NCBI GenBank assembly: GCA_040255825.1
Contig: JBDZVS010000001.1
Span: 2,867 to 66,866, forward strand
Origin: Hyphomicrobiales bacterium
GTDB taxonomy: Bacteria; Pseudomonadota; Alphaproteobacteria; Micropepsales; Micropepsaceae
Reading direction: 5' to 3'
Length of the DNA: 64,000 bases
In this document: positions 22,522 through 43,523 of the stretch, in pieces
Position numbering within the stretch: the first letter of the stretch is position 1
Layout of the letters: each line of letters opens with the position of its first letter
Program-made: the position numbers and the translations under genes
Notes under the pieces: model-generated
Databases searched by the model: none
What the model was told of the DNA's origin: nothing
What the model saw: only the letters and a program-made list of their open reading frames with translations

Positions 22522-23361
22522 CTAAATCTGTTTGAGCAGCCAGCGCACCGACCGGCGCTGAATCTCCAGATAGGTGGGATTCCACATGGCATGGATGGTG
22601 TGGCCCACGGCGGTGAAGACCACGCGTCCCTTGCCATAGTCATAGGCCCAGCCCGCCGGCGACCGGGTTCCCAGCTTGCGCCCGCCGGTCTCATAGGTCA
22701 GGCCGTCGCGGTTCTCCGATTCCAGGATCAGGTTGCGCGGGTCCTTGTCGTATTCGACGTAATGCTGCTCGTCATTGACCATGAAGGGCGGCAGGCCCGC
22801 CGTGATCGGGTGGCTGCTCTTGGTCGGATGGACCTCGAAGGGCCGCAAGGGCGGATGGCCGATATAGGCGCCGCCCATGACGTCGCGATAGGCCTTGCAG
22901 GACAGCGAGATGTGGCTGGCATTGTGCAGCGGATAGAAGCCGCCGCCGGCGTTGACGAAATCCTTGATCGCCTGGCCTTGGCTCTCGCGCATCCAGGTGA
23001 TGGGCTTGGGCGCGGGAAAATCGTCCTTGTTTTCCAGGTCGGCTTCATAGGCTGCATAGGCGTCCGGTCCCAGATAGCCGCCCGGCCAGATCATGCCGTC
23101 GCGCAGGATCAGGAAGATCTGATAGGGCCTCAGCAGCGCCGCCGACAGCGCGCCGTAATCCATCGTGTAGTCGATGGCGACGCCCAGCGGGCCGAACATC
23201 TTGTCCAGGCTGACGCGGATATAATCGGGATTGTGATAGCGGTCGCCCACCAGCGCCAGCGCGCGCGGCCGGGTCTGTGCGATCGCAGGCGCGCAGGCAA
23301 GGCCGGCGGCGACCCCGCCGATCACGGCGCGACGCGAAATCCTTTCTGTCTTTCCTGTCAT
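22522..23361 (-). CDS. ThuA-like (class I glutamine amidotransferase fold) protein with Tat signal
   Basis: ISRRAVIGG twin-arginine motif, FVNAGGGFYPLH, MGGAYIGHP, HPITAGLPPFMVNDEQH and YGKGRVVFTAVGH. Confidence 0.8.
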   Translation of the reverse strand: MTGKTERISRRAVIGGVAAGLACAPAIAQTRPRALALVGDRYHNPDYIRVSLDKMFGPLGVAIDYTMDYGALSAALLRPYQIFLILRDGMIWPGGYLGPDAYAAYEADLENKDDFPAPKPITWMRESQGQAIKDFVNAGGGFYPLHNASHISLSCKAYRDVMGGAYIGHPPLRPFEVHPTKSSHPITAGLPPFMVNDEQHYVEYDKDPRNLILESENRDGLTYETGGRKLGTRSPAGWAYDYGKGRVVFTAVGHTIHAMWNPTYLEIQRRSVRWLLKQI

Positions 23362-23408
23362 GTTTTTCCCCTGCCTTGCCCTGACTATAAGCCGCACCGG
23401 GCACAAAG

Positions 23409-23451
23409 CTGTAGACGCCGTGCCATGCGGCAGCCAAGATGATGTATACAA
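23409..23451. promoter_or_regulatory. candidate GntR-family operators
   Basis: CTGTAGAC (23409) and ATGTATACAA (23442-23451) lie in the divergent gap. Similar boxes occur at 26315 (TTGTCTACAG) and 33578 (TAGTATACAA). Confidence 0.45.
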
Positions 23452-23498
23452 AATACAGGCGGGGCCGCGACCGCCGCGCCGCGGAGGACCAGAAACAC

Positions 23499-25454
23499 AT
23501 GGCTTTGATCTCATCCAGGCGGCTCGCCGCACTCGCCGTCATGGCCACGGTTGTGGCCGTCGGCCTTGCCGCCTGCGACCAGAACAAGAGCTACAGCCAC
23601 AAGGGCGGACCGGTGGATGGCTGGCCGGTCTGGGGCCATGGCGCGCAAGGCCAGCGCTACAGCGCCAACACCCAGATCACGCCCGAGAATGTGAAGGACC
23701 TGAAAGTCGCCTGGACCTACCGCACCGGCGACCTGTCGGCTCCGGGCGAGGTGAAGAACCTGGCATTTGAAGCCACGCCCATCCTGGCCAACAACACGCT
23801 CTATCTGTGCAGCCCGCGCAACCGCATCGCCGCGCTCGATCCGCGGACCGGGCGGCAGAAATGGATGCGCGACCTCAAGCCCGACACCAACGGCGCCACC
23901 GTCATCGTCTGTCGCGGCGTCTCTTACTGGAAGGACAGCACCGCTCCCGCCGACGCCTTCTGCGCCCAGCGCATCTTCGCCGGCACCATCGACGGCAGGA
24001 TGTGGGCCCTGGACGCCAACACCGGCAAGCCCTGTCCGGGTTTCGGCACCAATGGCGTGGTCAATCTGCAGGCCGACCTTGGCTATGTGGAAAAGCCGGG
24101 CCTCTATGGAATTTCGTCGGCGCCCACCATCGTGGGCGACAAGGTGATCACCGGCTCCAAGATCATCGACTTCCACAATATCGACATGCCCGGCGGCGTG
24201 GTGCGCGCGCTGGATGCACGCACCGGCGCCCTGGTGTGGGCCTTCACCGCCGCGCCGCCCAGCACGCACCCCGATCCCACCACGAATGTCGCGCCGGACG
24301 AGGGCGGACATTACCCGCGCAGCGCGCCCAATGTGTGGGCGCCCATGTCCGTCGATGCCGAGCACCGGCTGATCTATCTGCCCACCGGCACGCCGCAGAT
24401 CGACGCGGTTCTGGGCAAGGGCGACTGGGACTATTACGGCTCTTCCGTCGTCGCGCTGAACGTCGATACGGGTGCGGTGGTGTGGCACTACCAGTTCGTG
24501 CACAAGGACATCTGGGACTATGACACGCCGGCCCAGCCCTTGCTGTTCGATTACAAGGCGCCCGACGGGAAGGTGATCCCGGCGCTCGCCCAGGCTACCA
24601 AGATGGGCTACATCTTCGTGCTCAACCGCCTGACGGGCGAGCCCATCTTCCCGGTGAAGGAGACGCCGGTCTCCACCGGCGGCCTGCAAAAGGGCCTGTC
24701 GCCCACCCAGCCGATCCCGGTGCTGCCCGAGCATCAGATCACGATCACCAGGATGACCGACAAGGACATGTTCGGTTTCGCGCTGGTCGACAAATGGGAC
24801 TGTCAGCGCCGCTTCAACAAGCTGAAGAATGACGGCATCTTCACGCCCTTCTATGCGCAGTCCAGCGTCGACTATCCGGTCAGCGTGGGCGGCATGGACT
24901 GGGGCGGCCTCACCTTCGATCCCAAGCGCAATATCCTGGTGGTCAATTCCAACAATGTGCTGGGCGCTCATCATCTGGCGCCGCACGCGGGCCCGGACGG
25001 CTATTCGCCGCTGATCGGCACGCCCTATCGGCAGGTCTATGATGACATGATGAGCATGTTCGGCGCGCCCTGCAACGCGCCGCCCTGGGGCAAGCTGGCC
25101 GGCATCGACATCACCACCGGCAAGAAGATCTGGGAGGTGCCGCTGGGCACCACCAGGGACGAGGCGCCCTGGCCGTTGTGGTTTCATCTGGGCGTACCCA
25201 ACCAGGGCGGCGCCATCACCACCGCCTCGGGCCTGACCTTCATCGCCGCCACGACGGATCGCTATTTCAGGGCCTTCTCCACCGAGACGGGCAAGGAGTT
25301 GTGGCGCGTCAGCCTGCCGGCGGCGGGCCAGTCCATGCCGATGACCTACCGGCTGGACAGCGACGGCAAGCAGTATGTGGTGATTGCCGCGGGCGGACAT
25401 TCGGCGTTACACAACAAGCAGGGCGATTACGTGATCGCCTATGCGTTGCCTTGA
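23499..25454 (+). CDS. PQQ-dependent dehydrogenase (glucose/quinate family lacking the N-terminal TM domain), predicted lipoprotein
   Basis: Lipobox VGLAAC. QRYSANTQITPENVKDLKVAW, FEATP, CRGVSYW, PNVWAPMSVD, HKDIWDYD and GGAITTASGLTF, with Trp-docking beta-propeller repeats. Confidence 0.88.
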   Translation: MALISSRRLAALAVMATVVAVGLAACDQNKSYSHKGGPVDGWPVWGHGAQGQRYSANTQITPENVKDLKVAWTYRTGDLSAPGEVKNLAFEATPILANNTLYLCSPRNRIAALDPRTGRQKWMRDLKPDTNGATVIVCRGVSYWKDSTAPADAFCAQRIFAGTIDGRMWALDANTGKPCPGFGTNGVVNLQADLGYVEKPGLYGISSAPTIVGDKVITGSKIIDFHNIDMPGGVVRALDARTGALVWAFTAAPPSTHPDPTTNVAPDEGGHYPRSAPNVWAPMSVDAEHRLIYLPTGTPQIDAVLGKGDWDYYGSSVVALNVDTGAVVWHYQFVHKDIWDYDTPAQPLLFDYKAPDGKVIPALAQATKMGYIFVLNRLTGEPIFPVKETPVSTGGLQKGLSPTQPIPVLPEHQITITRMTDKDMFGFALVDKWDCQRRFNKLKNDGIFTPFYAQSSVDYPVSVGGMDWGGLTFDPKRNILVVNSNNVLGAHHLAPHAGPDGYSPLIGTPYRQVYDDMMSMFGAPCNAPPWGKLAGIDITTGKKIWEVPLGTTRDEAPWPLWFHLGVPNQGGAITTASGLTFIAATTDRYFRAFSTETGKELWRVSLPAAGQSMPMTYRLDSDGKQYVVIAAGGHSALHNKQGDYVIAYALP

Positions 25455-25483
25455 GGGATGCCGTGGAAAGGCCGATCGACCCG

Positions 25484-26194
25484 ATGACGCCAGACGGCGA
25501 CCCACCCCCGGCGGCTCCGCCCACCCTGCGCGCGCATGTGGTCAGGATGCTGCGGGCGGATATTCTGGCGGGCAAGTACAAGCCCGGCGACCGGCTGAAC
25601 GAAAGCCAGATCGCGCGCGAGCTGAACATCAGTCGTATCCCCGTGCGCGAGGCGCTGTCCCAGCTTCAGGAACAGGGGCTGGTGGTCAACCGCGAGCGCC
25701 GCGGCATGTTCGTGATGGACCTGGACGCCGAGGAAGTGCTGCAGATTTCCTCGCTGCGCATCATCCTGGAGACTGAGGCGATCAAGCTGGCGCGCAGCCG
25801 CATGACCCCCGGCATTCTCGCCCAGCTCGAAAAGCTGATGCAGCAGATGGAAGCCTGGAACGGCACCCTGCTGGATGCCGCCGCGCTGGACCTGGAATTC
25901 CATCGCACCATCTGGCGCGCCACCGGCAACCCCTATCTGGAGCGGGCGCTCAACACGCTGATGGTGCCGATGTTCGCGCACAAGACGCTGGAGCATGTCA
26001 GCCAGGAGATACGGCGCTGGCGGCTCAGCCATCACCGCGCGCTGCTGGATGTGGTGGCGGGGATTTCTGACGCCGATCCGCAGGAATCGCTGCTGACGCA
26101 TCTGCGGATGTCCTACACCGAGCCCGAACGGTACTCGACTCTTGCCAAGAATCCCCCGCCGGAAAGCCGCCAGGACGAATCTGACAAAATTTAA
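25484..26194 (+). CDS. GntR-family regulator (FCD/FadR subfamily)
   Basis: LRADILAGKYKPGDRLNESQIARELNISRIPVREALSQL winged helix, followed by an FCD domain with DLEFHRTI. Confidence 0.9.
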   Translation: MTPDGDPPPAAPPTLRAHVVRMLRADILAGKYKPGDRLNESQIARELNISRIPVREALSQLQEQGLVVNRERRGMFVMDLDAEEVLQISSLRIILETEAIKLARSRMTPGILAQLEKLMQQMEAWNGTLLDAAALDLEFHRTIWRATGNPYLERALNTLMVPMFAHKTLEHVSQEIRRWRLSHHRALLDVVAGISDADPQESLLTHLRMSYTEPERYSTLAKNPPPESRQDESDKI

Positions 26195-26377
26195 ATGCGC
26201 TCAAAGTGTCGCCGGATTTCGCCTCTGCAAAAGGAATGATGCGCGCGATGGCATTCAGGGTGGCAACATGTCCGCTGGCAAATGCGCTGGCCGGCTACTA
26301 AGCTGCAACGTATATTGTCTACAGAGACGGGGCATAAAGAACCTGTCGGGACAGTTTCAGGAGAGGGACGCGAACCC

Positions 26378-27265
26378 ATGCATTCGTTCAGGAAATTCCT
26401 GCCGCTGGTCGGCGCCGCCGTCATTGCGCTGGGCGTTTCGGGCGCATCGGCACAGACCGCCGCCGACTATGCCGAATATGCCCAATGGCCGGCGCCGCAT
26501 GCCCAGGGCCAGAACGTCAATGGCATGCACATCTTCCTCTTCGCCGGCCTCAAGAGCCACGGGCCGGGCGCGCATGACTATCCCTACTGGCTCGATACCT
26601 GGTCCAAGCTGCTGACCCAGCACGGCGCTGTGGTGGATGGCGGCCTGTCCTTCCCCAGCCAGGCCCAGCTCGACAAGGCTGATGTCGTGGTCATTTACAA
26701 GGGCGATGCCGGTTACATGACGCCCGAGCAGCGCGCGATGCTGCAGAATTACGTCAAGCGCGGCGGCGGCCTGGTGACGTTGCACGACTCGCTGTGCGGT
26801 CCCGACCCTGCCGACATGGCGACCCTGGTGGGCGCCGGCAAGAAGCACGGCCAGACCAACTACACCTGGACCGCCACGCTCGACTACAATGTGGTCGACA
26901 AGGGCAATCCCATCATCAAGGGCATGCCGATGGAGATCTATGACGAAGCCTTCTACAACATGACCTTCGCCCCCGACATCCATCCCATCCTCACCGTCAC
27001 CATGCCCGACACGCCCGCGGCGCGGCGTGGCGGCGGCGTCGGCAAGACCGTGCCGCAGATGTGGACCTGGGAGCATACCGTGCCGGGCGGCACCGCTCCC
27101 GCGCGCGCCTTCGTCTGGATGCAGGGGCACATGGTCGACAGCCTAGAGGACCCGGCGATCCGCACTGTGCTGATGCGCGGCATCGCCTGGGCCGCCAAGA
27201 AGCCGGAAAACACGCTGACCGATTATGTGCCGCCGCCGCCGCGGCGCACGGCCCAGCGTCCGTAA
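26378..27265 (+). CDS. ThuA-like protein with Sec signal peptide
   Basis: Signal peptide ending ASA-Q. IFLFAGLKSHGPGAHD, YVKRGGGLVTLH, PQMWTWE, RAFVWMQGH and LMRGIAWAA. Confidence 0.78.
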   Translation: MHSFRKFLPLVGAAVIALGVSGASAQTAADYAEYAQWPAPHAQGQNVNGMHIFLFAGLKSHGPGAHDYPYWLDTWSKLLTQHGAVVDGGLSFPSQAQLDKADVVVIYKGDAGYMTPEQRAMLQNYVKRGGGLVTLHDSLCGPDPADMATLVGAGKKHGQTNYTWTATLDYNVVDKGNPIIKGMPMEIYDEAFYNMTFAPDIHPILTVTMPDTPAARRGGGVGKTVPQMWTWEHTVPGGTAPARAFVWMQGHMVDSLEDPAIRTVLMRGIAWAAKKPENTLTDYVPPPPRRTAQRP

Positions 27266-27280
27266 GCCAATCCGTCCGGG

Positions 27281-27313
27281 AAAGGCGGCCGTCGCGGGAC
27301 GATGGCCGCCTTT
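27281..27313 (+). terminator. 14-bp intercistronic hairpin (terminator or mRNA stabiliser)
   Basis: AAAGGCGGCCGTCG-CGGGA-CGATGGCCGCCTTT, between ThuA-2 and PQQ dehydrogenase 2. Confidence 0.55.
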
Positions 27314-27340: not shown

Positions 27341-29227
27341 GTGATGATGAAATCGGTGTTGAAGCTCGCAAGCTGCGCCGCGGCGTTGGCGATGCTGGCG
27401 GGAGGGGCCTTTGCCGCCGATCCCCTGGAACAGTCGACCGACTGGCAGACCAGCGGCCATGACCTGGGCGGCCAGCGCTATTCGCCGCTGACCCAGATCA
27501 CGCGGCAGAATGTTGCCCGGCTTCAGCCAGCCTGGAGCATCCATTTGACGCCGGAAGGCTATAAGGGCCGCCCGCGCCTGGCCGAGGCGATTCCGATCGT
27601 CGTCGGCAACATGATGTACATCGCCTCACCCTATGGCCAGATCCTGGCGCTGGACGCCACCAGCGGCCAGCGCAAATGGACCTTCGATCTTCCCGACAAG
27701 GACGTCGCCACCCGGCGTGGCGTCGCCTATTGGGGCGGCGGCGAAGGCGCGCCGGCCTCGATAGTCTTCGGCACGCGCCTGGGCCGGCTCTATTCGCTCG
27801 ATGCGGCCACCGGCCAGCTCAATCCGCGGTTCGGCGAGAACGGCGTCGTCAATCTGAAGACGCCGGAAGTGATGCCGGCCGACATGAAAGGATTCTACGA
27901 CCTGCCGTCGCCGCCCATCGTCTACAAGAACCTGATCATCACCGGGGCGGGCAATCCCGACGCCGCGCCCAACCGCGGCCCGCGCGGCGATACGCGCGCC
28001 TGGGACGCGGCCACCGGCAAGCTGGTGTGGACGTTCCATACCGTTCCGCGGCCCGGCGAGCCCGGCTATGACACCTGGGGCAAGGGCAGCGCCGAAAACC
28101 GTTCGGGCGTGAATGTATGGGGCTATATGACGATCGATGCCGACCGCGGCATCCTCTATATGCCACTGGGCGCGCCCAACAATGACCGCGTCGGCGTCGA
28201 CCGGCCCGGCAACAATCTCTATGGCTCCTCGCTGGTCGCTGTGGACGCCAACACCGGCAAGTATCTCTGGCACTTCCAGGTCGTTCATCACGACATCTGG
28301 GATTACGACACCCAGGACCCGCCGGTACTGATGGATGTGCACAAGGATGGCAAAACCATTCCCGCCGTGCTGACCGTCAACAAGAACGCGCTGGCCTTCA
28401 TCCTGAACCGCGTGACCGGCGAGCCGATCTTCGGGGTCGAGGAGCGGCCGGTGCCCAAAAGCAACGTGCCGGGCGAAATCACCTCGCCGACCCAGCCTTT
28501 CCCCGTCAAGCCGGAGCCGCTGTCGCAGAACCACATCTCGCGCGACAATCTCTACAAGGGCGAGCCGTCGCACCAGGCCTATTGCGAGAAGCTGGTGGAC
28601 GACAATCACATGGTCCTGGGCGGGCCGTTCCTGCCGCCGGGCTACAACCAGATCACGGTCTCGCCGCCCGGCACCCAGGGCGGGGTGAACTATTATGGCG
28701 GCAGCTTCGATCCCAAGCTTCGCCTGTTCGTGGCCAATGTGAACAACCTGTTCCAGCCCATGCGGGTGGTGCGCAAGCCGGACGGCACTTTCGCCAATAC
28801 CTATGGCGTGCTTCGCTTCTGGGATCCCGACAAGAAGCTTCCCTGCGGACCCACGCCCTGGGGCCAGTTGGTGGCCGTCAATGTGGATACGGGCGACATT
28901 GCCTGGCGCAAGACGCTCGGCGTCACCGAAAGCTTCCCGGCAGGCCTGCAGGATACCGGCCGGCCTGGCCTGGGCGGCACCATCCTGACCGCCAGCGGCC
29001 TGACCTTTGTCGGCGCGACCGACGATTTCCGCTTCCGGGCCTTCGCAACTGCAACCGGCGACAAGCTTTGGGAGGTCAAGCTGAAAGCGTCGGTCACGGC
29101 CACGCCCGTGACCTATCTGGGGGCCGACGGCCGCCAATTCGTCACAGTGATGAACACCGGTGGTTCCCAGACCGGATCGGTGGTCACCAACGACGAGGTC
29201 ATCGCCTTCGCTTTGCCCAAAAACTAG
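27341..29227 (+). CDS. second PQQ-dependent dehydrogenase (glucose/quinate family, soluble periplasmic type)
   Basis: Sec signal ending AFA-A. GGQRYSPLTQIT, RRGVAYW, GDTRAWDA, HHDIWDYD and GGTILTASGLTFVGA. Confidence 0.88.
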   Translation: MMMKSVLKLASCAAALAMLAGGAFAADPLEQSTDWQTSGHDLGGQRYSPLTQITRQNVARLQPAWSIHLTPEGYKGRPRLAEAIPIVVGNMMYIASPYGQILALDATSGQRKWTFDLPDKDVATRRGVAYWGGGEGAPASIVFGTRLGRLYSLDAATGQLNPRFGENGVVNLKTPEVMPADMKGFYDLPSPPIVYKNLIITGAGNPDAAPNRGPRGDTRAWDAATGKLVWTFHTVPRPGEPGYDTWGKGSAENRSGVNVWGYMTIDADRGILYMPLGAPNNDRVGVDRPGNNLYGSSLVAVDANTGKYLWHFQVVHHDIWDYDTQDPPVLMDVHKDGKTIPAVLTVNKNALAFILNRVTGEPIFGVEERPVPKSNVPGEITSPTQPFPVKPEPLSQNHISRDNLYKGEPSHQAYCEKLVDDNHMVLGGPFLPPGYNQITVSPPGTQGGVNYYGGSFDPKLRLFVANVNNLFQPMRVVRKPDGTFANTYGVLRFWDPDKKLPCGPTPWGQLVAVNVDTGDIAWRKTLGVTESFPAGLQDTGRPGLGGTILTASGLTFVGATDDFRFRAFATATGDKLWEVKLKASVTATPVTYLGADGRQFVTVMNTGGSQTGSVVTNDEVIAFALPKN

Positions 29228-29273: not shown

Positions 29274-29669
29274 GTGCGCAAGATTCATCTGGTCGGTTTG
29301 ATTGTAATGGCCTCGGCGACGGCCGCCTGGGCCCAGGACGATTTCCCCAGCCTGCCGCCTGGCCCGGGCCGCGACGTGACAGTGCGGGTCTGCTCGCAGT
29401 GCCACTCGCCGGAAATCGTCGCCAACCAGCGCATGGACAAGGATGGCTGGAAGGCGCTGGTGGACCAGATGGCCAACAATGGCGCCAATGCCACCAGCGA
29501 GGAATTCGACACCATCACCAACTATCTTGCGACGGTTTTCCCCGCCACGCCGGCGCCTGGTGGGGCCGCGCCGGCGGCACCCGGGGCCGCGCCGGCTCCC
29601 GCCAGCCCGGATGCGGGCGCATCGGCCGCCACCAACGACGCGACCGGCACCGTCACGCCGCAACAGTAA
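29274..29669 (+). CDS. small periplasmic monohaem cytochrome c with Ala/Pro-rich tail
   Basis: Signal peptide ending AWA-Q. LPPGPGRD..CSQCH (CxxCH), then W...VDQM..GA and ITNYLA. Directly follows PQQ dehydrogenase 2. Confidence 0.82.
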   Translation: MRKIHLVGLIVMASATAAWAQDDFPSLPPGPGRDVTVRVCSQCHSPEIVANQRMDKDGWKALVDQMANNGANATSEEFDTITNYLATVFPATPAPGGAAPAAPGAAPAPASPDAGASAATNDATGTVTPQQ

Positions 29670-30631: not shown

Positions 30632-30638
30632 TACCGAT

Positions 30639-30716
30639 CGTCATGGCCCGGTGTGTCCGGGCCATCCAGTTTGTTGAGAGTGAAACTGGATGGCCCGCAT
30701 GAAGCGGGCCATGACG
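30639..30716. repeat. CGTC-tagged REP doublet (family B)
   Basis: CGTCATGGCCCGGTGTGTCCGGGCCATCCAGTTT...AAACTGGATGGCCCGCATGAAGCGGGCCATGACG. Nested inverted repeat between convergent genes. Confidence 0.78.
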
Positions 30717-30736
30717 AATTGGGTAGAGTGGAAAAC

Positions 30737-30769
30737 AAAAACGGCGCCGGAGCGATCCAGCGCCGTTTT
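30737..30769. terminator. bidirectional intrinsic terminator
   Basis: AAAAACGGCGC-loop-GCGCCGTTTT, between the convergent FAH and dehydratase genes. Confidence 0.65.
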
Positions 30770-30785
30770 CTATTATGCATCGCGA

Positions 30786-33555: not shown

Positions 33556-33587
33556 TTGACTTGCCGGTGCCTGAATTTAGTATACAA
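33556..33587 (+). promoter_or_regulatory. sigma70-like promoter overlapped by a GTATAC operator-like box
   Basis: TTGACT, then 16 nt, then TAGTAT. TAGTATACAA overlaps the -10 upstream of the MFS gene. Confidence 0.55.
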
Positions 33588-35895: not shown

Positions 35896-36951
35896 ATGAA
35901 AACGCGGCGTGACGTGATGATGGGTGGGGCGGCGCTGGCCGCCACGTCGGCTTTTCCCGCCCAGGCGGCGGACATGCGGCCGCAGTCTCCATTAGGCGTT
36001 GCCCAGACGGCGCTGGGCCATTACTTCCGCCGCCAGCGCGGTGGCGCGCGTACCCGCGGACCGGCCGATCCTTTCGCGACGGTCGCCTATGTGCGTTCGC
36101 TGGGTGCCGGCGGCGTCCAGATGGCCATTCCTGACGGCACCGATGTGAAGAAACTGCGCGCGGCGCTGGAGAAGAACAATCTGTTCTTCGAGGGCGACAT
36201 CCGCATGATCGCCAAGCCGGGCGACGATACCGCCGCGTTCGAGCGCGGGCTTCGCATGTACAAGGAACTGGGCGCCTCCTGCGTGCGCACGGTGTCCTTT
36301 GTCGGGCGCCGCTACGAGACCTTCAGCACCCTGCAGCAGTACCGGGACTGGAAGACCAACGCCGATGGCGTGCTGGCGGCCTGCGTGCCCATCGCCGACA
36401 AGGTCGGAATCCCGCTGGCGATGGAGAACCACAAGGATCGCGTCGTCGATGAGGAAGTGGAAGTCCTGAAGAAATATTCCAGCGAATATTTTGGCGCCCT
36501 GGTCGATTTCGGCAACAACATCTCGATGTGCGACGATCCGGTGGAGACGATCCGCAAGCTGGCCCCCTATGTGAAGGCCACCCACGTCAAGAACATGGCA
36601 GTGGCCCGCTATGACGAGGGCTTTCTTCTCTCGGAAGTACTGTTCGAGGATGGTTTCCTCGATATTCCCGCCCTTTTCGCCGAGCTGCGGAAGGTCAATC
36701 CCAAGATCCATCCCATGCACGAGCTGATTACCCGCGACCCCCTGAAGGTGCCGGTGCTGACCGACAAATACTGGGTGACCTGGCCCGAGCGCAGCGGGCT
36801 CTACCTGGAGCGCACGCTCAGGCTGGTCGACGCCAATGCCAGCAAGAAGCCCTTGCCCACCGTCAGCGACCTGGACGCGGCGGCACAATTCGCCGTCGAG
36901 GAAAGCAACAACATCAAGTGTTTCGACTGGGCCCGAAAGGCACTCGTCTGA
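35896..36951 (+). CDS. Tat-exported sugar-phosphate isomerase/epimerase-like TIM-barrel protein
   Basis: KTRRDVMMGG twin-arginine motif. Metal-site pattern LAMENHKD...LVDFGN...THVKN..., then GFLDIP and HELI. Confidence 0.8.
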   Translation: MKTRRDVMMGGAALAATSAFPAQAADMRPQSPLGVAQTALGHYFRRQRGGARTRGPADPFATVAYVRSLGAGGVQMAIPDGTDVKKLRAALEKNNLFFEGDIRMIAKPGDDTAAFERGLRMYKELGASCVRTVSFVGRRYETFSTLQQYRDWKTNADGVLAACVPIADKVGIPLAMENHKDRVVDEEVEVLKKYSSEYFGALVDFGNNISMCDDPVETIRKLAPYVKATHVKNMAVARYDEGFLLSEVLFEDGFLDIPALFAELRKVNPKIHPMHELITRDPLKVPVLTDKYWVTWPERSGLYLERTLRLVDANASKKPLPTVSDLDAAAQFAVEESNNIKCFDWARKALV

Positions 36952-36952: not shown

Positions 36953-37015
36953 CCTCACCCTGAGCCTGCCGACGGGTGAGGGGTGCCTCATTGGTTCGAC
37001 AGGCTCACCATGAGG
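36953..37015. repeat. second copy of REP family A
   Basis: CCTCACCCTGAGCCTGCCGACGGGTGAGG-GGTG-CCTCATTGGTTCGACAGGCTCACCATGAGG, homologous to 22455-22521. Located between convergent genes. Confidence 0.72.
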
Positions 37016-37025
37016 AGCGCGCCGC

Positions 37026-38171
37026 TCACTGCACGGTGAAATGCATCATCGTGGTCGAGGTGAACGTCTCGCCCGGCCGCAGCACCGTGGACGGGAAATC
37101 CGGGTGGTTGGGGCTGTCGGGATAATGCTGCGTCTCCAGCGCCAGCCCATCGGTGGCGCGCAGGGTGGTGCCCGCCGGCGTGACGCCGGTGCCGTTGAGG
37201 TGGTTCGAGGAATAGACCTGCACGCCGGGCTGGGTGGTATAAAGCTCCAGCGTGCGGCCGCTGTCCGGATCGGTCAGCCGCGCCGCCAGCTCCAGCGCGC
37301 CGGGCTTGGATTTGCGCAGCACGAAATTGTGGTCATAGCCCTGGCCGATCAGCATCTGCGGCTCGCTCGAGCGCAGGTCGCGGCCGATCGGCTTGGGGGA
37401 CCGGAAGTCCAGCGCCGTGCCGGCCACGGGCGCGATCTCACCGGTGGGAATCTGGTTCTTGTCGGTGGGCGTATAGCTGTCGGCCATCAGCGTCAGCACC
37501 TGCGGTTCCACCGAGCCCGAGCCGTTGCCCGCCAGGTTGTAATAGGTGTGGTTGGTCAGGTTGACGACGGTGGGCTTGTCGGTGGTCGCCTTATAGTCGA
37601 TGCGGAAATCGGCATCGTCGGTGAGGGTATAGGTGACATCCACCGTCAGCGTGCCGGGAAAGCCCTGGTCGCCGTCCGGGCTGACCAGGCGCAGCGTCAC
37701 GCCCGCCGTACTGGCGGTCTGGAAAGTCTTCACCGTCTGCAGAAGCCGGGTGGAATAGCCGGGACGGCCGCCGTGCAGGGTCACGCCGGCGGGATTGGCC
37801 GCCAGGTCGTAATGCTTGCCGTCCAGCGTGAAGCCGTGCAGCAGCCGGTTGGCATAGCGGCCGGTCAGCGCACTCATCGGCCCGGTGGCCAGGATGTTCG
37901 CCATGTCCTTCTGGCACAGGATCACATTGGCCATCTTGCCGTCGCGGCCGGGCGCCTCCACATCACAGATGATGCCGCCATAATCCAGCACCTGGGCGCG
38001 CATGCCCTTGCTGTTGGTCAATGTGAAGATGTGCACGTCCTGGCCGTCGCGCGTGGTGCCGAAGACCTTCTGCTCGACGGTGCCGGCCCGGGCTGGGCCG
38101 ACCAACGGACCGGCCATCAGGCCGGCCGCCGCCAGGATGGCCGCGGTGGCCGCGGCGCAAGAGCTGTTCAT
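37026..38171 (-). CDS. galM: aldose 1-epimerase (mutarotase) with signal peptide
   Basis: GRYANR, LHGG, GFPGTL, NLTNHTYYNL, GYDHNF, YTTQPGVQVY and LETQHYPDSPN. Hydrophobic N-terminus ending ARA-G. Confidence 0.92.
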   Translation of the reverse strand: MNSSCAAATAAILAAAGLMAGPLVGPARAGTVEQKVFGTTRDGQDVHIFTLTNSKGMRAQVLDYGGIICDVEAPGRDGKMANVILCQKDMANILATGPMSALTGRYANRLLHGFTLDGKHYDLAANPAGVTLHGGRPGYSTRLLQTVKTFQTASTAGVTLRLVSPDGDQGFPGTLTVDVTYTLTDDADFRIDYKATTDKPTVVNLTNHTYYNLAGNGSGSVEPQVLTLMADSYTPTDKNQIPTGEIAPVAGTALDFRSPKPIGRDLRSSEPQMLIGQGYDHNFVLRKSKPGALELAARLTDPDSGRTLELYTTQPGVQVYSSNHLNGTGVTPAGTTLRATDGLALETQHYPDSPNHPDFPSTVLRPGETFTSTTMMHFTVQ

Positions 38172-38372
38172 GCCTGTTTTCCCCTCTTTCATCCCCGTAA
38201 AAGCGCGTCTCATGGTGCGGCAGCCCATGAATTGACTGTGTTTTGCCGCCGGCGACTATAGTATTGCCGTCACAGAACCACAAAGATGTGGGTGCGCCGG
38301 ATCGTTCCGGGGCCGGGAGCAACGCTAAGGGAAGGGGTTGGCGCGGCATTGCTTGCGCCTTTTGGTCCGCAC

Positions 38373-40745
38373 ATGAAATTTTCGACACGTCACGCCATGC
38401 TCGGCGCCGCCGCCGCCATCCTGCTTGCCGGCGCCGGCCTGACCTCGCGAACAAGCCTGGCCCAGCCCGCCGATACGCCCAACAATCCCTTCGCCGGCAA
38501 CACCGCCGCCGTCGCCCAGGGCGAGAAGATCTTCAATTCCACTTGCACGGCCTGTCATGGCGCGGGCGCCAGCGGGGGACGGGGACCGGCGCTCAACACC
38601 GGCACCTTCAGCCATGGCTCGGGCGATTACGATCTCTACCAGACCATCCGCTCGGGCGTGCCGGGTACCCAGATGCCCAGCTTCGCGCGCCTGCCGTCCG
38701 ACGACGTCTGGCGGGTCGTCACCTACATCAAGAGCCTTTCGGGCGGCTCGGCGACCACGGCCGCGCTGCCGGGCGACGCCGCGCGCGGCGAAGCGCTGTT
38801 CTTCGGCGCCGGCAATTGCACCGCCTGCCATGAGGTGAACGGGCGCGGCGCGGCCATCGCCGCCGACCTGTCGGACGAGGGCACCAAGGCGCCGGCGGCG
38901 ATCAGGAACGGCGTGCTGCACAAGCCCCAGCGCCGCTTCCGGGCGCGGCCCCATTTCGCCGATGTGACGATGAAGGACGGCACGCGCAGCAGCGGCTTCG
39001 TCGTCGCCGAGGACAGTTTCGCCATCGCCCTTCAGGCCGGCGGCAAGTTCGTCACCCTGGACAAGGACAAGGTTCAGGCCATGGCCGACCGCGATGCCAC
39101 CCCGCATGACCTCAAGCTGACATCGGCCCAGGTGGACGACCTTGTGGCCTATCTTGCCCAACACAAGAAGCGCGACTTCACCCAGACGGCCAAGGTGACG
39201 CCGGCGCCGGTGCTGACCTATGCGCGCATCGCGGATGCCCGCGCCGAACCGCAGAACTATCCCACCTATTGGGGCGACTATCAGGGCCATCACTTCAGTG
39301 CCCTGGACCAGATCAACAAGACCAATGTCGGCCAGCTTCAGGCCAAATGGGCCGCGCCGCTTCCCGGCCAGTCCGCACTGGAATCGCTGCCGCTGGTGGT
39401 GGACGGGGTGATGTATGTCTCCGGCCCGCCCGGCGACGTCTATGCCTTCGACGCCAAGACCGGCCTGCAGCTGTGGAAATTCCACCGCAAGCAGGACATC
39501 GTCAATCCCTACCAGATCAATCCCTCCAACCGCGGCGTGGCGGTGCTGGACGGGCGCGTCTTCTTCGGCACGCTGGACGATAACCTGATCGCGCTGGATG
39601 CCCATACCGGACGCGAATTGTGGGAAGTGCGCATCGCCGACACGATGGAAGGCTTCACCCTCACCGGCGCGCCGCTGGCGGTGAAGGACAAGATCATCAT
39701 GGGATCGTCGGGCGGCGAGATGGGGCTGCGCGGCTTCCTGGACGCCTATGATCCCGCCACCGGCAAGCGGCTGTGGCGCTTCTATACGACGGCGGCGCCG
39801 GGCGGGCCCAATGGCGGCACCTGGCCGGGCGACACCTGGAAGCTGGGCGGCGGCGGCACCTGGCTGACCGGCAGCTATGACCCGCAGCTCGACACGCTGT
39901 ATTGGAGCGTCGGCAATCCCGCGCCCTCCTTCAACCCGGACGTCCGCAAGGGCGACAATCTCTATACCGACAGCGTGGTGGCGCTCGATCCCGACACCGG
40001 CAAGCTGAAATGGTACTATCAGTTCACCCCCAACGACTCCCATGACTGGGATTCGGAGGAAGACCTGGTGCTGGCCGACCAGATGGTGGACGGCAAGATG
40101 CGCAAGCTCCTGCTGCACACCGACCGCAACGGCGTCTTCTATGCGCTGGACCGCGAGACCGGCAAATTCCTCTGGGCCAAGCCCTTCGTGAAAGTTACCT
40201 GGGTCAAGGGCTGGAACAAGAATGGCCGGCCCATCGTCAATCACGACACCGACGCCACGGCCCAAGGCAGGATCGTCTGGCCGGCCACCGGCGGCACCAA
40301 TTTCCAGGCGCCATCCTATGACCAGGAAAGCACCACGCTCTATGTGCAGACCAACGAGCAGCAGGGCTGGGCCAACAGCGGCCCGGCGGTGTTCGAGCGC
40401 GGCAAGCTCTATACCGCGCGCGGCAGCGTGGTGCCGCCGCCCGGCCCCCCGCCCAAGCCGGCGATCAAGGCGATCGACACCACCAATGGCGACATCAAAT
40501 GGACCGCGCCGGTCGCGGCGCCCAGCCTGTCGGCGGGCGTGCTGGCGACGCGCGGCGGGGTAGTGTTCGTCGCCACCACCGAGGGCCAGTTCATCGCGCT
40601 GGACAGCGCCACCGGCAAGCCGCTGTGGAATTTCCGCACCGGCTCGCGCATGAGCGCATCGCCGGTAAGCTACGCCGTCGACGGCAAACAGTATGTCGCC
40701 ATCGGCGCCGGCAACATGCTTTACACCTTCGCGCTTCCCGGTTGA
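38373..40745 (+). CDS. PQQ-dependent alcohol-dehydrogenase-family quinoprotein with two N-terminal cytochrome c domains
   Basis: Signal peptide and CTACH at 38544 and 38817. The PQQ domain has YWGDYQGHHFSAL, NRGVA, GGEMGLRGFL, GGGTW, GNPAP and TPNDSHDWD. Confidence 0.87.
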   Translation: MKFSTRHAMLGAAAAILLAGAGLTSRTSLAQPADTPNNPFAGNTAAVAQGEKIFNSTCTACHGAGASGGRGPALNTGTFSHGSGDYDLYQTIRSGVPGTQMPSFARLPSDDVWRVVTYIKSLSGGSATTAALPGDAARGEALFFGAGNCTACHEVNGRGAAIAADLSDEGTKAPAAIRNGVLHKPQRRFRARPHFADVTMKDGTRSSGFVVAEDSFAIALQAGGKFVTLDKDKVQAMADRDATPHDLKLTSAQVDDLVAYLAQHKKRDFTQTAKVTPAPVLTYARIADARAEPQNYPTYWGDYQGHHFSALDQINKTNVGQLQAKWAAPLPGQSALESLPLVVDGVMYVSGPPGDVYAFDAKTGLQLWKFHRKQDIVNPYQINPSNRGVAVLDGRVFFGTLDDNLIALDAHTGRELWEVRIADTMEGFTLTGAPLAVKDKIIMGSSGGEMGLRGFLDAYDPATGKRLWRFYTTAAPGGPNGGTWPGDTWKLGGGGTWLTGSYDPQLDTLYWSVGNPAPSFNPDVRKGDNLYTDSVVALDPDTGKLKWYYQFTPNDSHDWDSEEDLVLADQMVDGKMRKLLLHTDRNGVFYALDRETGKFLWAKPFVKVTWVKGWNKNGRPIVNHDTDATAQGRIVWPATGGTNFQAPSYDQESTTLYVQTNEQQGWANSGPAVFERGKLYTARGSVVPPPGPPPKPAIKAIDTTNGDIKWTAPVAAPSLSAGVLATRGGVVFVATTEGQFIALDSATGKPLWNFRTGSRMSASPVSYAVDGKQYVAIGAGNMLYTFALPG

Positions 40746-40749
40746 GGTC

Positions 40750-41319
40750 ATGACCCAGAACGCTTCCGAAGATCTGCCCCTGATCGTGGTGATGGGCGTC
40801 GCCGGCTCCGGCAAGACCACCATCGCCAGCGGCCTGGCCAAGCGGCTGGAGGTCGCCTTCGTCGAGGGCGATGCGCTCCATCCCCATTCCAATGTCGAGA
40901 AGATGGCCGGCGGCATGCCGCTGAGCGACGAGGATCGCTGGCCCTGGCTGCGCGCCATCGGCGTGACGATGGAATCGGAAAGGCGCGCCGGCCGTGGCGT
41001 GGTCGTGTCCTGCTCCGCCCTCAAGCATGCCTATCGCGACTGCATCCGCAGCATGGTCCAGGGACCGGTGCGATTCATCCTGCTCAATGGCCCGCGTGAC
41101 CTGATCGCGCTGCGCATGGCCGGCCGCAAGGGCCACTTCATGCCGCCCGCGCTGCTGGACAGCCAGCTCGCAACACTGGAACCGCCTGGCGAGGATGAAG
41201 ACGCGGTGACCCTCGACATCACCCAGACGATCGAACAGCTGGTCGATAAAGCCTATGCGGCGGCCAAGGCGCCGCCCGGCAAGGCCGGGCGCGGCAGCCA
41301 GACGGAGAAGCACCGATGA
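40750..41319 (+). CDS. gntK: gluconokinase (GntK/IdnK type)
   Basis: MGVAGSGKTT P-loop, EGDALHP..NVEKM..G.PL.DEDRWPWL, CSALK..YRD and HFMPPALLDSQLATLE. Confidence 0.92.
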   Translation: MTQNASEDLPLIVVMGVAGSGKTTIASGLAKRLEVAFVEGDALHPHSNVEKMAGGMPLSDEDRWPWLRAIGVTMESERRAGRGVVVSCSALKHAYRDCIRSMVQGPVRFILLNGPRDLIALRMAGRKGHFMPPALLDSQLATLEPPGEDEDAVTLDITQTIEQLVDKAYAAAKAPPGKAGRGSQTEKHR

Positions 41320-42371
41320 AAGCCACGGCTGTTATCGCGCCGCTTGCCGCCGCGCTTCTGCTGGGCGCGGCACCGACGCAGGCGCAGGATGCGGCGCCAC
41401 AGAAATTCCCCACCCCGCCGCCCAAGGCGACGGAACGGAATAGCATCATCGGCCCTGCCTATGCCAACGCGCCGGAAACCGTGGCCAACCCGGACGCGCC
41501 TCAGGGCCAGGTGTTCGAGTTCGTCATGCATTCGGATGAGAGCCGCATCTATCCGGGCATCGTGCGCATCGCGCGGATGACGCGCGACCAGTTCGGCAAC
41601 TATGTCGTGCCTCCGGGCGGCATCTCCGCGCCCGGTCCTTATGAGCGGCACGTCTATGTCTATATTCCCAAACAGTACCGCCAGGGCACGCCCGCGCCCT
41701 TCATGGTGATCCAGGACGGCCATTCCTATGTAAAGCGCATGGTCGCGATGATGGACAACATGATCGCCGCCAAGCGCCTGCCGGTCATGGTGCTGGTGTT
41801 CGCCGATTCCGGCGGCAGCGACGCCCAGGGTTCGGAGCGCGGCCTGGAATACGATACGCTGTCGGAGCGCTATTCCAACTGGGTGGAACAGGAGCTGCTG
41901 CCGGCGGTAACGAAGAATTACGGCGTGACCTTCACCAGCGATCCCGACGGGCGCGGCACATTGGGCGGAAGCTCGGGCGGCATCGCCGCCTTCACCATGG
42001 CCTGGTTCCATCCCGAGCGCTATCACAAGGTGCTGTCCTATTCGGGCACCTTCGTGAACCAGGCCTGGCCGGTCGATCCCGCCACGCCGCGCGGCGGCTG
42101 GGAATATCACGATCACCTGATCGCCCAGGCGCCGACAAAGCCCATCCGCATCTGGATGGAGGTTGGCGAAAAGGACAATCGCTTCGACGCGCCCGAGGAT
42201 ACCTGGCACAACTGGCCGCTGGCCAACAACCGCATGGCCGCGGTGTTCGCGAAGAAGGGCTATGACTATCGTTATGTCTTCGCGCTCGGTGCCGGGCATG
42301 TCGACAATCGCGTGGTGATGCAGACGCTGCCGGCGGCGATGGAATGGCTGTGGCGGGATTATCCGCGCTGA
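41316..42371 (+). CDS. secreted alpha/beta-hydrolase esterase (Fes/CE1-like), paralog 1
   Basis: Sec signal ending AQA-Q. RHVYVYIP, ERGLEYD, nucleophile elbow GGSSG, GEKD and GH. Confidence 0.85.
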   Translation: MKATAVIAPLAAALLLGAAPTQAQDAAPQKFPTPPPKATERNSIIGPAYANAPETVANPDAPQGQVFEFVMHSDESRIYPGIVRIARMTRDQFGNYVVPPGGISAPGPYERHVYVYIPKQYRQGTPAPFMVIQDGHSYVKRMVAMMDNMIAAKRLPVMVLVFADSGGSDAQGSERGLEYDTLSERYSNWVEQELLPAVTKNYGVTFTSDPDGRGTLGGSSGGIAAFTMAWFHPERYHKVLSYSGTFVNQAWPVDPATPRGGWEYHDHLIAQAPTKPIRIWMEVGEKDNRFDAPEDTWHNWPLANNRMAAVFAKKGYDYRYVFALGAGHVDNRVVMQTLPAAMEWLWRDYPR

Positions 42372-42419
42372 TATTCGCCGTGCCTCTTCGAGGACGGGAC
42401 AATGAGGAACGAGGGCCCC

Positions 42420-43523
42420 ATGATCGATCGCAAGACCTTTATTCTCTCGCTGCTGGCGGGTACCGCGTTGACGGGTGCGGGTTTGGCGGGTGCGGCGCCC
42501 GCCCTGGCCCAGCCACCGGCCGCCAGTCCCGACCTGCCGAAATTTCCCACCCCGCCGCCCCCGGTGACGGCCGAGAACAGCATCATCGGGCCGGACTATG
42601 CCAACGCGCCCGAGACCGCACCCAATCCCAACGTGCCTCAGGGCGACGTGTTCGAGTTCGTGATGTACTCGGATGAAAGCAAGATCTATCCGGGCATCGT
42701 GCGCATCGAGGGCGAATTGTCCGCCAGGCGCGATCCTTACGGCAACCGCATGGCGTTCACGGCCGACCAGCTTTCGAAACCCGGTCCTTATGTGCGCCAC
42801 GTCTATGTCTACATTCCCCGGCAGTACAAGCCCGGCACGGCGGCGCCCTTCATGGTGGTGCAGGACGGGCACTCCTATATCCATCGGCTCGCGCCCACCC
42901 TGGACAATCTGATCGCGGCGGGCAGCGTCCCGGCGATGATCATCGTGGCGCCCGACTCCGGCGGCAGCGACGCCCAGGGCTCCGAGCGCGGCCTGGAATA
43001 CGACACGCTGTCGGATCGCTATTCCAACTGGGTGGAACAGGAACTGCTGCCGGCGGTGGCGAAGAAATACAACGTCACCTTCACCAGCAATCCGGAAGGG
43101 CGCGGCGCAATGGGCGGCTCCTCGGGCGCGATCTGCGCCTGGACCATGGCCTGGTTCCATCCCGAGCGCTATCGCAAGGTGCTGTCCTATTCTGGCACTT
43201 TCGTGAACCAGGCCTCGCCCCAGGACCCTGCCACGCCGCGCGGCGGCTGGGAATACCACGCCACCCTGATCCCCAAATCGCCGAAAAAACCTATCCGCAT
43301 CTGGATGGAGGTTGGCGAAAAGGACCTGCATTTCGACGATCCCGAGAATACCTGGCACAACTGGCCCTTGGCCAACAACCGCATGGCCGCCGCGCTGAAG
43401 AAGAGGGGCTATGACTATAAATATGTCTGGGCCCGCGAGGCGCGCCATGTCGATCCGCGGGTGGTGATGCAGACGCTTCCGGCTGCCCTGGAATGGCTGT
43501 GGCGGGATTATCCCCGAGGCTGA
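42420..43523 (+). CDS. secreted alpha/beta-hydrolase esterase (Fes/CE1-like), paralog 2
   Basis: Long Tat-like leader (IDRKTFILS). Same motifs as paralog 1 (GGSSG, GEKD, RH), with long near-identical DNA stretches shared with it. Confidence 0.85.
   Translation: MIDRKTFILSLLAGTALTGAGLAGAAPALAQPPAASPDLPKFPTPPPPVTAENSIIGPDYANAPETAPNPNVPQGDVFEFVMYSDESKIYPGIVRIEGELSARRDPYGNRMAFTADQLSKPGPYVRHVYVYIPRQYKPGTAAPFMVVQDGHSYIHRLAPTLDNLIAAGSVPAMIIVAPDSGGSDAQGSERGLEYDTLSDRYSNWVEQELLPAVAKKYNVTFTSNPEGRGAMGGSSGAICAWTMAWFHPERYRKVLSYSGTFVNQASPQDPATPRGGWEYHATLIPKSPKKPIRIWMEVGEKDLHFDDPENTWHNWPLANNRMAAALKKRGYDYKYVWAREARHVDPRVVMQTLPAALEWLWRDYPRG

Follow-up and report, generated by a model that had tools for sequence, protein, structure and literature searches.

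A candidate cytochrome-c-coupled periplasmic sugar-oxidation cluster with exported ThuA-like proteins in Micropepsales

We analysed a 64-kb window (the whole stretch of DNA, from contig JBDZVS010000001.1 of a Micropepsaceae bacterium) in which positions 22522-43523 encode ten proteins with predicted export signals, with cytoplasmic sugar-acid genes and the gene of a GntR/FCD regulator in between. We put the probability at roughly 0.55 that this cluster is a cytochrome-c-coupled, soluble/lipoprotein variant of periplasmic aldose oxidation by pyrroloquinoline quinone (PQQ) enzymes, joined to a Route III/gluconokinase trunk and governed by a GntR repressor. Its substrates are most plausibly xylose/arabinose and glucose. 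The backbone of such a pathway is already known, and the new part is the association of ThuA-like proteins with quinoproteins and cytochrome c.

Genes were called by third-position GC because the window has a G+C content of about 65%, and they were identified from these calls together with Pfam and NCBIfam profile matches. Export was predicted with a simple check of hydrophobicity, charge and AxA motifs, which set the ten proteins and a neighbouring GH67 enzyme apart from the cytoplasmic enzymes. All ten exported proteins were recovered where an earlier reading of the letters alone (the sequence-only reading) had placed them. The sugar-acid transporter of the major facilitator superfamily (MFS), the dehydratase, the FAH hydrolase, the two short-chain dehydrogenases/reductases (SDRs), the gluconokinase and the GntR regulator that it had described as interleaved with them were all present.

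Quinoproteins and cytochrome c

Two of the three quinoproteins have a propeller like that of the membrane glucose dehydrogenase Gcd. PQQ1 (23499-25454, plus strand) carries the lipobox LAAC of a lipoprotein, and PQQ2 (27344-29227, plus strand) is predicted to be soluble in the periplasm. They matched TIGR03074 with 691 bits (profile positions 146-783) and 437 bits (positions 150-783), both under the cut-off of 832.65 for full-length members. In the alignment, both proteins have a signal peptide in place of residues 1 to ~150 of E. coli Gcd, which form its membrane domain. Identity to E. coli Gcd is 39% for PQQ1 and 32% for PQQ2, and PQQ1 and PQQ2 share 39% with each other. Residues W404, D466, K493 and D730 of Gcd, of which D466 is the general base, were invariant in an alignment of Gcd, PQQ1, PQQ2 and three homologues, and H775 was kept in PQQ1 only. 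PQQ1 and PQQ2 are thus predicted to be anchor-less forms of the membrane glucose dehydrogenase, one a lipoprotein and one soluble, which appear to be undescribed. A lanthanide-dependent type, considered for both on account of a WDYD motif, was rejected because E. coli Gcd carries WDMD at the same place, so the motif is not diagnostic.

Since the quinone-reducing membrane domain is gone, PQQ1 and PQQ2 need another electron acceptor. A monohaem cytochrome c with a signal peptide and one CSQCH motif is encoded directly after PQQ2 (29274-29669, plus strand), and each PQQ2 homologue found, whether in Alphaproteobacteria, in Acidobacteria or in a Pseudomonadales metagenome-assembled genome (MAG), comes with such a small cytochrome c behind it. 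In five of the loci compared (numbered with an L below) the propeller and the cytochrome c are fused into one protein (L061 6275-8764, L046 6447-8825, L063 7565-9877, L077 14286-16664 and L039 10914-13211), and these gene fusions are evidence for the electron route. The cytochrome part is a C-terminal fusion with CSGCH in the Acidobacteria and is N-terminal in the Pseudomonadales MAG. From this pairing, which appears to be undescribed, the small cytochrome c is the probable dedicated acceptor of PQQ2.

PQQ3 (38373-40745, plus strand) is of another kind, with an N-terminal dihaem cytochrome c domain (two CTACH motifs) fused to a propeller of the alcohol dehydrogenase (ADH) type. It passed the cut-off of TIGR03075 (529 bits against 480), and its best match among Protein Data Bank (PDB) structures was 6ZCW (E 4e-99). 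The vicinal Cys-Cys ring beside PQQ, a usual trait of ADH-type quinoproteins, is missing, with Y-Q aligned to the C-C of 6ZCW, while the PQQ ligands and the Glu/Asn/Asp metal ligands are kept. PQQ3 may depend on a lanthanide, because its extra Asp (D-W-D) aligns to D-F-D of 6ZCW.

ThuA-like proteins

ThuA1 (22522-23361, minus strand) is encoded divergently from PQQ1 and has a twin-arginine motif, SRRAVI, with predicted export by the twin-arginine translocation (Tat) route. ThuA2 (26378-27265, plus strand) has a Sec-type signal. Both belong to Pfam ThuA PF06283 (87.9 and 85.8 bits; gathering threshold 33.4 bits), through partial matches that cover profile positions 64-208 and 45-209 of 209, respectively. 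The two are only 20% identical. At E <= 1e-10 we found 3730 homologues of ThuA2 and 2334 of ThuA1, and soil Acidobacteria, Verrucomicrobia and Alphaproteobacteria have many members of PF06283.

An AlphaFold2 (AF2) model of ThuA2 (pLDDT 85.7) showed a fold like that of class-I glutamine amidotransferases, with the ThuA-like structure 4JQS, which has no assigned function, as the best Foldseek match. No redox-cofactor motif is present in the ThuA-like proteins. The family has many invariant His, Asp, Cys, Glu and Arg residues, a pattern that suggests a metal or catalytic site. ThuA is required together with ThuB for the formation of 3-keto-disaccharides, and periplasmic 3-keto pathways exist (PMC8121099); a ThuA domain also accompanies a GMC oxidoreductase in the iminosugar (DNJ) cluster of Pseudomonas fulva (PMC11494336). 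Among the papers searched for ThuA with PQQ, ThuA-like proteins with cytochrome c, and PF06283, none made the link, and within that literature the association of ThuA, PQQ enzyme and cytochrome c and the anchor-less Gcd-like enzymes remain undescribed.

Conservation of the cluster and of the ThuA-quinoprotein association

We sampled 80 genome loci around ThuA2 homologues, about 40 from Micropepsales and 40 from other lineages (Terriglobia, Sphingomonadales, Verrucomicrobia and one Pseudomonadales MAG). The order ThuA1, PQQ1-GntR, ThuA2-PQQ2-cytochrome c-FAH, IlvD-SDR1 and MFS2-SDR2-TIM barrel, divergent between ThuA1 and PQQ1 and again between SDR1 and MFS2, was kept in the ~40 Micropepsales loci, and the order of the whole cluster was also found in L088, L103, L171 and L172. 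The genes of the cluster have therefore stayed together across the Micropepsales, and the core is found again in other phyla, which answers the doubt, raised with the sequence-only reading, that they might not be conserved together.

In the 40 loci of other lineages, a PQQ gene lay within 3.5 kb of the ThuA2 homologue in 17 and within 10 kb in 20. The density of PQQ genes in these loci was 0.77 per 10 kb near the ThuA2 homologue and 0.12 further off. Among the two neighbours on either side, PQQ was the commonest Pfam family (14/117), followed by SDR (13), MFS (7), GntR/FCD and cytochrome c (4 each) and epimerase (3); aldo-keto reductases were also frequent there. The arrangements varied. A module of Acidobacteriaceae has ThuA2 convergent with PQQ-MFS2-SDR2, and Polymorphobacter has PQQ2-cytochrome c, ThuA2 and then FAH-GntR-IlvD, with other genes in between. 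L086 has ThuA2-FAH-SDRs-IlvD-GntR and no PQQ gene.

A homologue of ThuA1 is part of the same cluster in L088 and stands directly behind a cytochrome-c-PQQ gene in L090. A third, distant type of ThuA abuts PQQ2-family genes on soil metagenome contigs (L104, L109, L131, L164 and L169), and matched a joint profile of ThuA1 and ThuA2 with E values from 1e-7 to 3e-20. Exported ThuA-like proteins of three subfamilies thus adjoin anchor-less PQQ genes in Alphaproteobacteria, Acidobacteria and other MAGs, an association that appears to be undescribed. The ThuA2-cytochrome pair outlasts the quinoprotein in some Micropepsales: L031, L032, L036, L037 and L076 have GntR-ThuA2-cytochrome c-FAH, and L036 and L076 have no PQQ gene within 10 kb.

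The stop codon of the ThuA2 homologue is overlapped in Sphingomonadales by a gene that encodes an SRPBCC protein (PF10604, polyketide-cyclase-like) of ~160 aa (L052 10846-11325, L055 4017-4487, L056 10846-11337 and L062 10699-11265). A similar gene occurs in the sugar-acid cluster of L086 (14567-15061).

Cytoplasmic sugar-acid genes

Between the exported proteins lie genes whose families match the non-phosphorylative Route III, by which Herbaspirillum huttiense converts pentonates to pyruvate and glycolate with a dehydratase, a 4-dehydrogenase and a hydrolase (PMC6336799). The IlvD/Edd-type aldonate dehydratase (30786-32597, minus strand) is XylD-like; its 1044 bits against NF009560 exceed the cut-off of 684, as expected of a Route III aldonate dehydratase, and it matched the Caulobacter xylonate dehydratase 5OYN with 821 bits and 7M3K with 1069 bits. 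The FAH-family protein (29789-30631, plus strand) is a putative 2,4-diketo-3-deoxy-aldonate hydrolase of the LRA6-like kind; it matched the L-2,4-diketo-3-deoxyrhamnonate hydrolase 8GSR (E 3.5e-98) and reached 420 bits against the equivalog model NF053535 (cut-off 500). SDR1 (32621-33445, minus strand) matched generic SDR models only and has a fixed place beside the dehydratase and FAH genes in all related loci. It is a candidate 2-keto-3-deoxy-aldonate (KDP/KDR) 4-dehydrogenase, from this conserved position and by analogy with the Herbaspirillum operon (PMC6336799). Together the three are probably the Route III trio, in which the families are observed and the specificity is predicted.

The components of the Weimberg pathway (xylXABCD) are present in part, namely XylB, an SMP-30/gluconolactonase-like (SGL) lactonase and the XylD-like dehydratase. 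The FAH protein is hydrolase-like, in contrast to the dehydratase XylX of that pathway, and the window encodes no aldehyde dehydrogenase such as its semialdehyde dehydrogenase XylA. We also considered a system for quinate/shikimate and an oxidative pathway for uronates, and dropped both since their downstream genes are absent.

MFS2 (33719-34978, plus strand) resembles sugar-acid transporters of the anion:cation symporter (ACS) type, with 206 bits against TIGR00893, below the cut-off, and accompanies SDR2 and ThuA2 in Acidobacteria. The putative sugar-acid oxidoreductase SDR2 (35020-35775, plus strand) is closest to gluconate 5-dehydrogenases, though not specifically so (1VL8, E 1.2e-45); its homologues in Acidobacteria are 59-66% identical and adjoin ThuA2. 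GntK (40750-41319, plus strand) is a gluconokinase of the GntK/IdnK type (TIGR01313, 197 bits; cut-off 113.75).

Candidate operators and transcription units

The GntR/FCD regulator gene (~25478-26194, start approximate, plus strand; PF00392 and PF07729) is predicted to be co-transcribed with PQQ1, and its position is conserved in related loci. The palindrome TWGTATACWA, with up to 2 mismatches, occurs only eight times in the 64 kb; four of the eight sites fall in the 5.6 kb of intergenic DNA, and three of these four lie in promoter regions. The best candidate operator, TAGTATACAA (33578-33587, zero mismatches), is in the divergent promoter of SDR1 and MFS2, where it overlaps the -10 element of a promoter match (TTGACT-16-TAGTAT) and is conserved in 13/20 related loci. 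Another candidate, ATGTATACAA (23442-23451), is in the promoter region of ThuA1 and PQQ1 and is conserved in 5/29 related loci. A degenerate one, TTGTCTACAG (26315-26324), lies upstream of ThuA2, and the orthologous site reads TTGTATACAG in L024, L026 and L028. No TWGTATACWA site was found at the mutarotase/PQQ3 promoter. The co-regulation through shared operators that had been suggested from the letters alone is therefore plausible for the three promoters that share the site.

ThuA2, PQQ2, cytochrome c and FAH are separated by short gaps and followed by a terminator-like hairpin behind FAH, with ThuA2 as the first gene of the unit. The overlap of the GntK stop with the Est1 start links PQQ3, GntK, Est1 and Est2 as a predicted operon.

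Some intergenic elements were observed besides these. In the spacer between the convergent FAH and IlvD genes (30632-30785), the inverted repeat AAACTGGATGG has a long GC-rich hairpin on either side, one being ATGGCCCGG...CCGGGCCAT and the other its partner around CATGAAGCGGGCCATG, an arrangement beyond a simple terminator. A 27-nt palindrome, CTCACCCTGAGCYTGYCGAMGGGTGAG, occurs at 22495-22521 and at 36954-36980, both times between convergent genes and with 0 copies expected by chance; it looks like a REP-like intergenic repeat. Beside its first copy, GACTCATGCTTCGGCA is present twice as a short tandem duplication (22436-22470).

TIM barrel, mutarotase and esterases

The TIM-barrel protein (35896-36951, plus strand) is xylose-isomerase-like (PF01261, 51 bits) and carries the Tat motif TRRDVM, conserved in 11 homologues. 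It had no informative PDB or NCBIfam match, and its single-sequence AF2 model was of low confidence (pLDDT 46.6). Its gene stands behind SDR2 in Micropepsales only, outside the core that is shared across phyla. A synteny search for PQQ enzymes, ThuA and TIM-barrel proteins had been proposed with the sequence-only reading; it bore out the first two, which recur together across phyla, and confined the third to one order.

The mutarotase, an aldose 1-epimerase (37026-38213, minus strand; PF01263, 266 bits), has a signal peptide and exceeded the cut-off of NF008277 (299 bits against 240). Est1 (41316-42371, plus strand) is an exported PF00756 serine esterase with the motif GGSSG, and Est2 (42420-43523, plus strand), likewise PF00756 with GGSSG, is its tandem paralogue at 73% identity. 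Their PDB similarity to CE1 and enterochelin esterases is marginal.

The order GntK-Est-Est is conserved in L171 and L172, which have MFS2-SDR2-TIM-GntK-Est-Est with no GH43 or GH67 gene nearby. The mutarotase and PQQ3 look like an insertion into this older operon, and the TIM barrel and the esterases therefore belong with the sugar-acid genes and not with xylan deconstruction. The linkage of the TIM barrel and the esterase pair in one operon with the MFS, SDR and gluconokinase genes appears to be undescribed. A view of Est1 and Est2 as CE1-type xylan esterases, prompted by the GH43 and GH67 genes close by, was weakened by the relatives that lack nearby glycosidases and by the marginal CE1/enterochelin matches.

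Proposed pathway

If the cluster works as we propose, the exported mutarotase would equilibrate the sugar anomers, and PQQ1, PQQ2 and PQQ3, whose architecture is observed and whose substrates are predicted, would oxidise the sugars in the periplasm. Because PQQ1 and PQQ2 lack the membrane and ubiquinone domain, the electrons would exit by c-type haem, through the small cytochrome c encoded behind PQQ2 and through the two haems fused to PQQ3. The products, aldonolactones or keto acids, would then be turned into transportable acids. The best candidates for this product processing or accessory step are the exported ThuA-like proteins, with the two esterases and the Tat TIM barrel as weaker ones; a periplasmic lactonase step has otherwise no candidate gene in the cluster. 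MFS2 would import the acids. Pentonates would pass through the XylD-like dehydratase, SDR1 and the LRA6-like FAH protein to pyruvate and glycolate, if their specificities are as predicted, and for (keto)gluconate, reduction by SDR2 and phosphorylation by GntK would yield 6-phosphogluconate. XylB and the lactonase would feed the same trunk from xylose freed in the cytoplasm by GH43.

For the ThuA-like proteins we make a further and tentative proposal, to which we give odds well short of even. Exported proteins of at least three ThuA subfamilies would act as specific partners to soluble PQQ quino(haemo)proteins and their c-type cytochromes, and would catalyse a hitherto unrecognised periplasmic step on the oxidised sugar, for example the processing of a lactone or keto-sugar. 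In its strongest form, they would cleave glycosides or sugar esters after PQQ oxidation together with the TIM barrel and the esterases.

Points against the proposal and rival explanations

Several observations speak against these proposals. A sequence profile of the ThuA2 family found no entry in the PDB, and Foldseek with ThuA2 returned only ThuA-like structural-genomics entries and generic amidotransferase folds, so no function can be transferred to ThuA2. H262 of Gcd is kept in neither PQQ1 nor PQQ2, and the best structural relatives of PQQ3 are alcohol dehydrogenases. No PQQ biosynthesis genes (pqqA-E) were seen in the 64-kb window. The insertion that the mutarotase and PQQ3 appear to form is specific to the lineage and has no operator, and the trunk of IlvD, SDR1 and FAH could receive all of its input from XylB and the lactonase in the cytoplasm. 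A gene of any ThuA family was found in only 9/80 metagenome loci of the PQQ2 family, or 7/38 of those with both flanks. Within Micropepsales the five loci named above have ThuA2-cytochrome c-FAH and no PQQ2, about six have PQQ1 and no ThuA1, and three have ThuA1 and no PQQ1. Because of this weak reverse association and the separability within Micropepsales, ThuA is a frequent, not an obligatory, partner of anchor-less quinoproteins.

The modular gain and loss of ThuA, PQQ1, PQQ2, mutarotase/PQQ3 and GH67/GH43 among close relatives would be expected if the region were an island of independent operons (xylan/xylose, aldonate Route III, gluconate/ketogluconate and unrelated periplasmic alcohol or polyol dehydrogenases) in which ThuA serves a function apart from the quinoproteins. 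Most genes of the PQQ2 family stand without a ThuA neighbour, L089 carries a ThuA1 homologue with neither a PQQ neighbour nor any PQQ gene, and PQQ3 resembles ethanol dehydrogenases. We nevertheless consider independent operons unlikely, as the adjacency of ThuA and PQQ genes recurs with three ThuA subfamilies in differing gene orders and phyla, FAH shares one predicted transcription unit with ThuA2-PQQ2-cytochrome c, and three promoters share candidate operators. Somewhat less probable again is that the ThuA-like proteins are accessory subunits, serving the activity, stability, maturation or electron transfer of sugar dehydrogenases that retain their cofactor (ThuB, GMC or PQQ), in parallel to the need for ThuA by ThuB. 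ThuA genes do stand beside three cofactor classes, with ThuB (PMC8121099), with GMC (PMC11494336) and here with PQQ; ThuA2 still adjoins cytochrome c where PQQ2 is missing; and the predicted Tat route of ThuA1 would also suit such a role. The absence of a redox-cofactor motif, the invariant residues that resemble a catalytic or metal site and the separability of ThuA and PQQ genes count against it. The ThuA-like proteins may be either product-processing enzymes or accessory subunits of cofactor-retaining dehydrogenases.

The sequence-only reading had allowed for glycoside cleavage by oxidation and elimination. The quinoproteins would then oxidise a secondary hydroxyl (e.g. at C3) of glycosides or oligosaccharides in the periplasm, the TIM barrel and ThuA would eliminate or hydrolyse the keto-glycoside, and the cell would import the fragments. 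Some enzymes of the Gcd/quinate/SldA family oxidise secondary alcohols. The cluster does encode ThuA-family and xylose-isomerase-like TIM proteins that carry export signals, and GH67 and GH43 are nearby. ThuAB forms 3-keto-disaccharides and periplasmic 3-keto pathways exist (PMC8121099). However, the window encodes no Gfo/Idh/MocA enzyme and no DUF1080 hydrolase, and its sole FAD/GMC-type oxidoreductase lies ~17 kb outside the cluster. The defining set of a 3-keto-glycoside locus (a LacA-type FAD or Gfo/Idh/MocA oxidase with a DUF1080 or TIM lyase) is thus represented by the Tat TIM barrel only, which itself is confined to Micropepsales. The conserved partners handle acids (ACS-type MFS, aldonate dehydratase, diketo-acid hydrolase and gluconokinase), and PQQ1 keeps the catalytic residues of Gcd including H775. 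A literature search on periplasmic 3-keto-glycosides and TIM barrels found no papers. We regard this pathway as improbable, the least probable of the alternatives considered. The other part of the same reading, cytochrome-c-linked PQQ oxidation outside the cytoplasm followed by import of the acids, fits the gene anatomy and the synteny and is the part that we retain.

Comparison with known systems

In the Pseudomonas putida group, PQQ-Gcd oxidises xylose and arabinose in the periplasm, and the acid is imported and degraded by the Weimberg pathway and/or Route III (PMC10107873). Our cluster shares with the Pseudomonas system a Gcd-homologous PQQ propeller, oxidation outside the cytoplasm and predicted acid import, an IlvD/Edd dehydratase, an SDR and FAH pair predicted to lead to pyruvate and glycolate, and a gluconokinase. 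It differs in that PQQ1 and PQQ2 lack the five-helix membrane/ubiquinone domain and would pass electrons to c-type cytochromes, that FAD gluconate dehydrogenase, KguK and KguD are missing, and that ThuA-like proteins, a TIM barrel and esterases are added. With the Route III operon of Herbaspirillum huttiense (PMC6336799) it has in common a dehydratase, a candidate KDP 4-dehydrogenase of the SDR family, a putative 2,4-dioxo-acid hydrolase of the FAH superfamily, a transporter and a regulator. In contrast to that operon, its dehydratase is of the IlvD/Edd (XylD-like) type, it is joined to periplasmic redox genes, and the specificity of SDR1 and FAH is predicted only, with the NF053535 match below cut-off. 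Because of the FAH, dehydratase, SDR and GntK matches and the Pseudomonas Gcd precedent, the backbone is of a known pathway kind. The claim that the combination is not a characterised pathway therefore fails for the backbone (PMC10107873, PMC6336799) and, within the literature searched, stands for the ThuA-PQQ-cytochrome c association and the anchor-less Gcd-like enzymes.

The likeness to ThuAB of Sinorhizobium and Agrobacterium lies in the Pfam ThuA domain and its association with a sugar dehydrogenase, whereas our ThuA-like proteins are predicted to be exported, match PF06283 partially and have a quinoprotein as partner. Neither a PF01408-type ThuB (Gfo/Idh/MocA) nor the sugar ABC transporter ThuEFGK is among the genes of the window. 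In Gluconobacter, the SldAB propeller has no membrane domain of its own and relies on the SldB anchor, and ketogluconate is recycled by an SDR and gluconokinase. The cluster likewise has Gcd-family propellers without their own membrane domain, a gluconate 5-dehydrogenase-like SDR and a gluconokinase, but it has no SldB-like anchor gene and has cytochrome c instead of the quinone link. PQQ3 resembles type II quinohaemoprotein, PedH and XoxF-type ADHs in passing TIGR03075 and in its metal ligands and extra Asp, and departs from them in its N-terminal dihaem domain, the missing Cys-Cys and its place in a sugar-acid operon with gluconokinase. The periplasmic 3-keto-glycoside pathways LacABC and Bacteroides BT2156-2160 likewise have genes of exported TIM-barrel proteins and oxidoreductases within one carbohydrate locus; our cluster, in contrast, lacks their defining oxidase types and the DUF1080 hydrolase, and its conserved context is sugar acids.

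Flanking genes and source

To the left of the cluster lie glycogen genes with zwf, a LacI regulator, XylB, the SGL lactonase (PF08450), GH43, a second MFS gene (MFS1) and the GH67 α-glucuronidase. The genes from XylB to GH67 (15583-22386) are flanking context outside the finding and belong to the physiological context of the cluster. XylB passed the equivalog cut-off of NF053674 (427 bits against 400), the GH43 xylosidase (PF04616) is signal-less and cytoplasmic, and GH67 (PF07488) is exported. The adjacency of GH67/GH43 to the cluster is limited to the closest relatives (L001, L004-L006 and L012).

Within the glycogen genes, a single 1025-aa open reading frame (ORF; 7770-10847, plus strand) encodes an apparent GlgA-PGM fusion, with a glycogen synthase part (Glyco_transf_5/GT1) at residues 1-440 and a complete phosphoglucomutase (PGM_PMM I-IV) at 496-1022. 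On the other side, at a distance of ~17 kb, there is a tight unit made up of an SDR gene (59864-60568), the gene of a GMC-type FAD oxidoreductase (60580-62148) and a 113-aa ORF without assignment (62145-62486), which may be a further sugar or alcohol oxidation module.

The assembly GCA_044463565.1 encodes an identical copy of one protein of the window, and close homologues are labelled Rhizomicrobium or Micropepsales. In a search of sequencing runs, near-identical DNA was found in rhizosphere metagenomes, and only in runs of rhizosphere metagenome DNA.

Implications

The cluster points to cytochrome-c-coupled, soluble periplasmic aldose oxidation in abundant rhizosphere bacteria, and so bears on how these bacteria gain energy from the sugars of hemicellulose and make their surroundings acidic. 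It could also supply work on biosensors or biocatalysis with soluble PQQ sugar dehydrogenases that have haem partners in nature. For PF06283, a large family with no assigned reaction, the link to quinoproteins, cytochrome c and sugar acids provides a testable context. If the proposed role of the ThuA-like proteins is true, it would give this large orphan family its first biochemical function, and a cofactor-independent rule of "dehydrogenase plus ThuA" would hold across the ThuB, GMC and PQQ classes.

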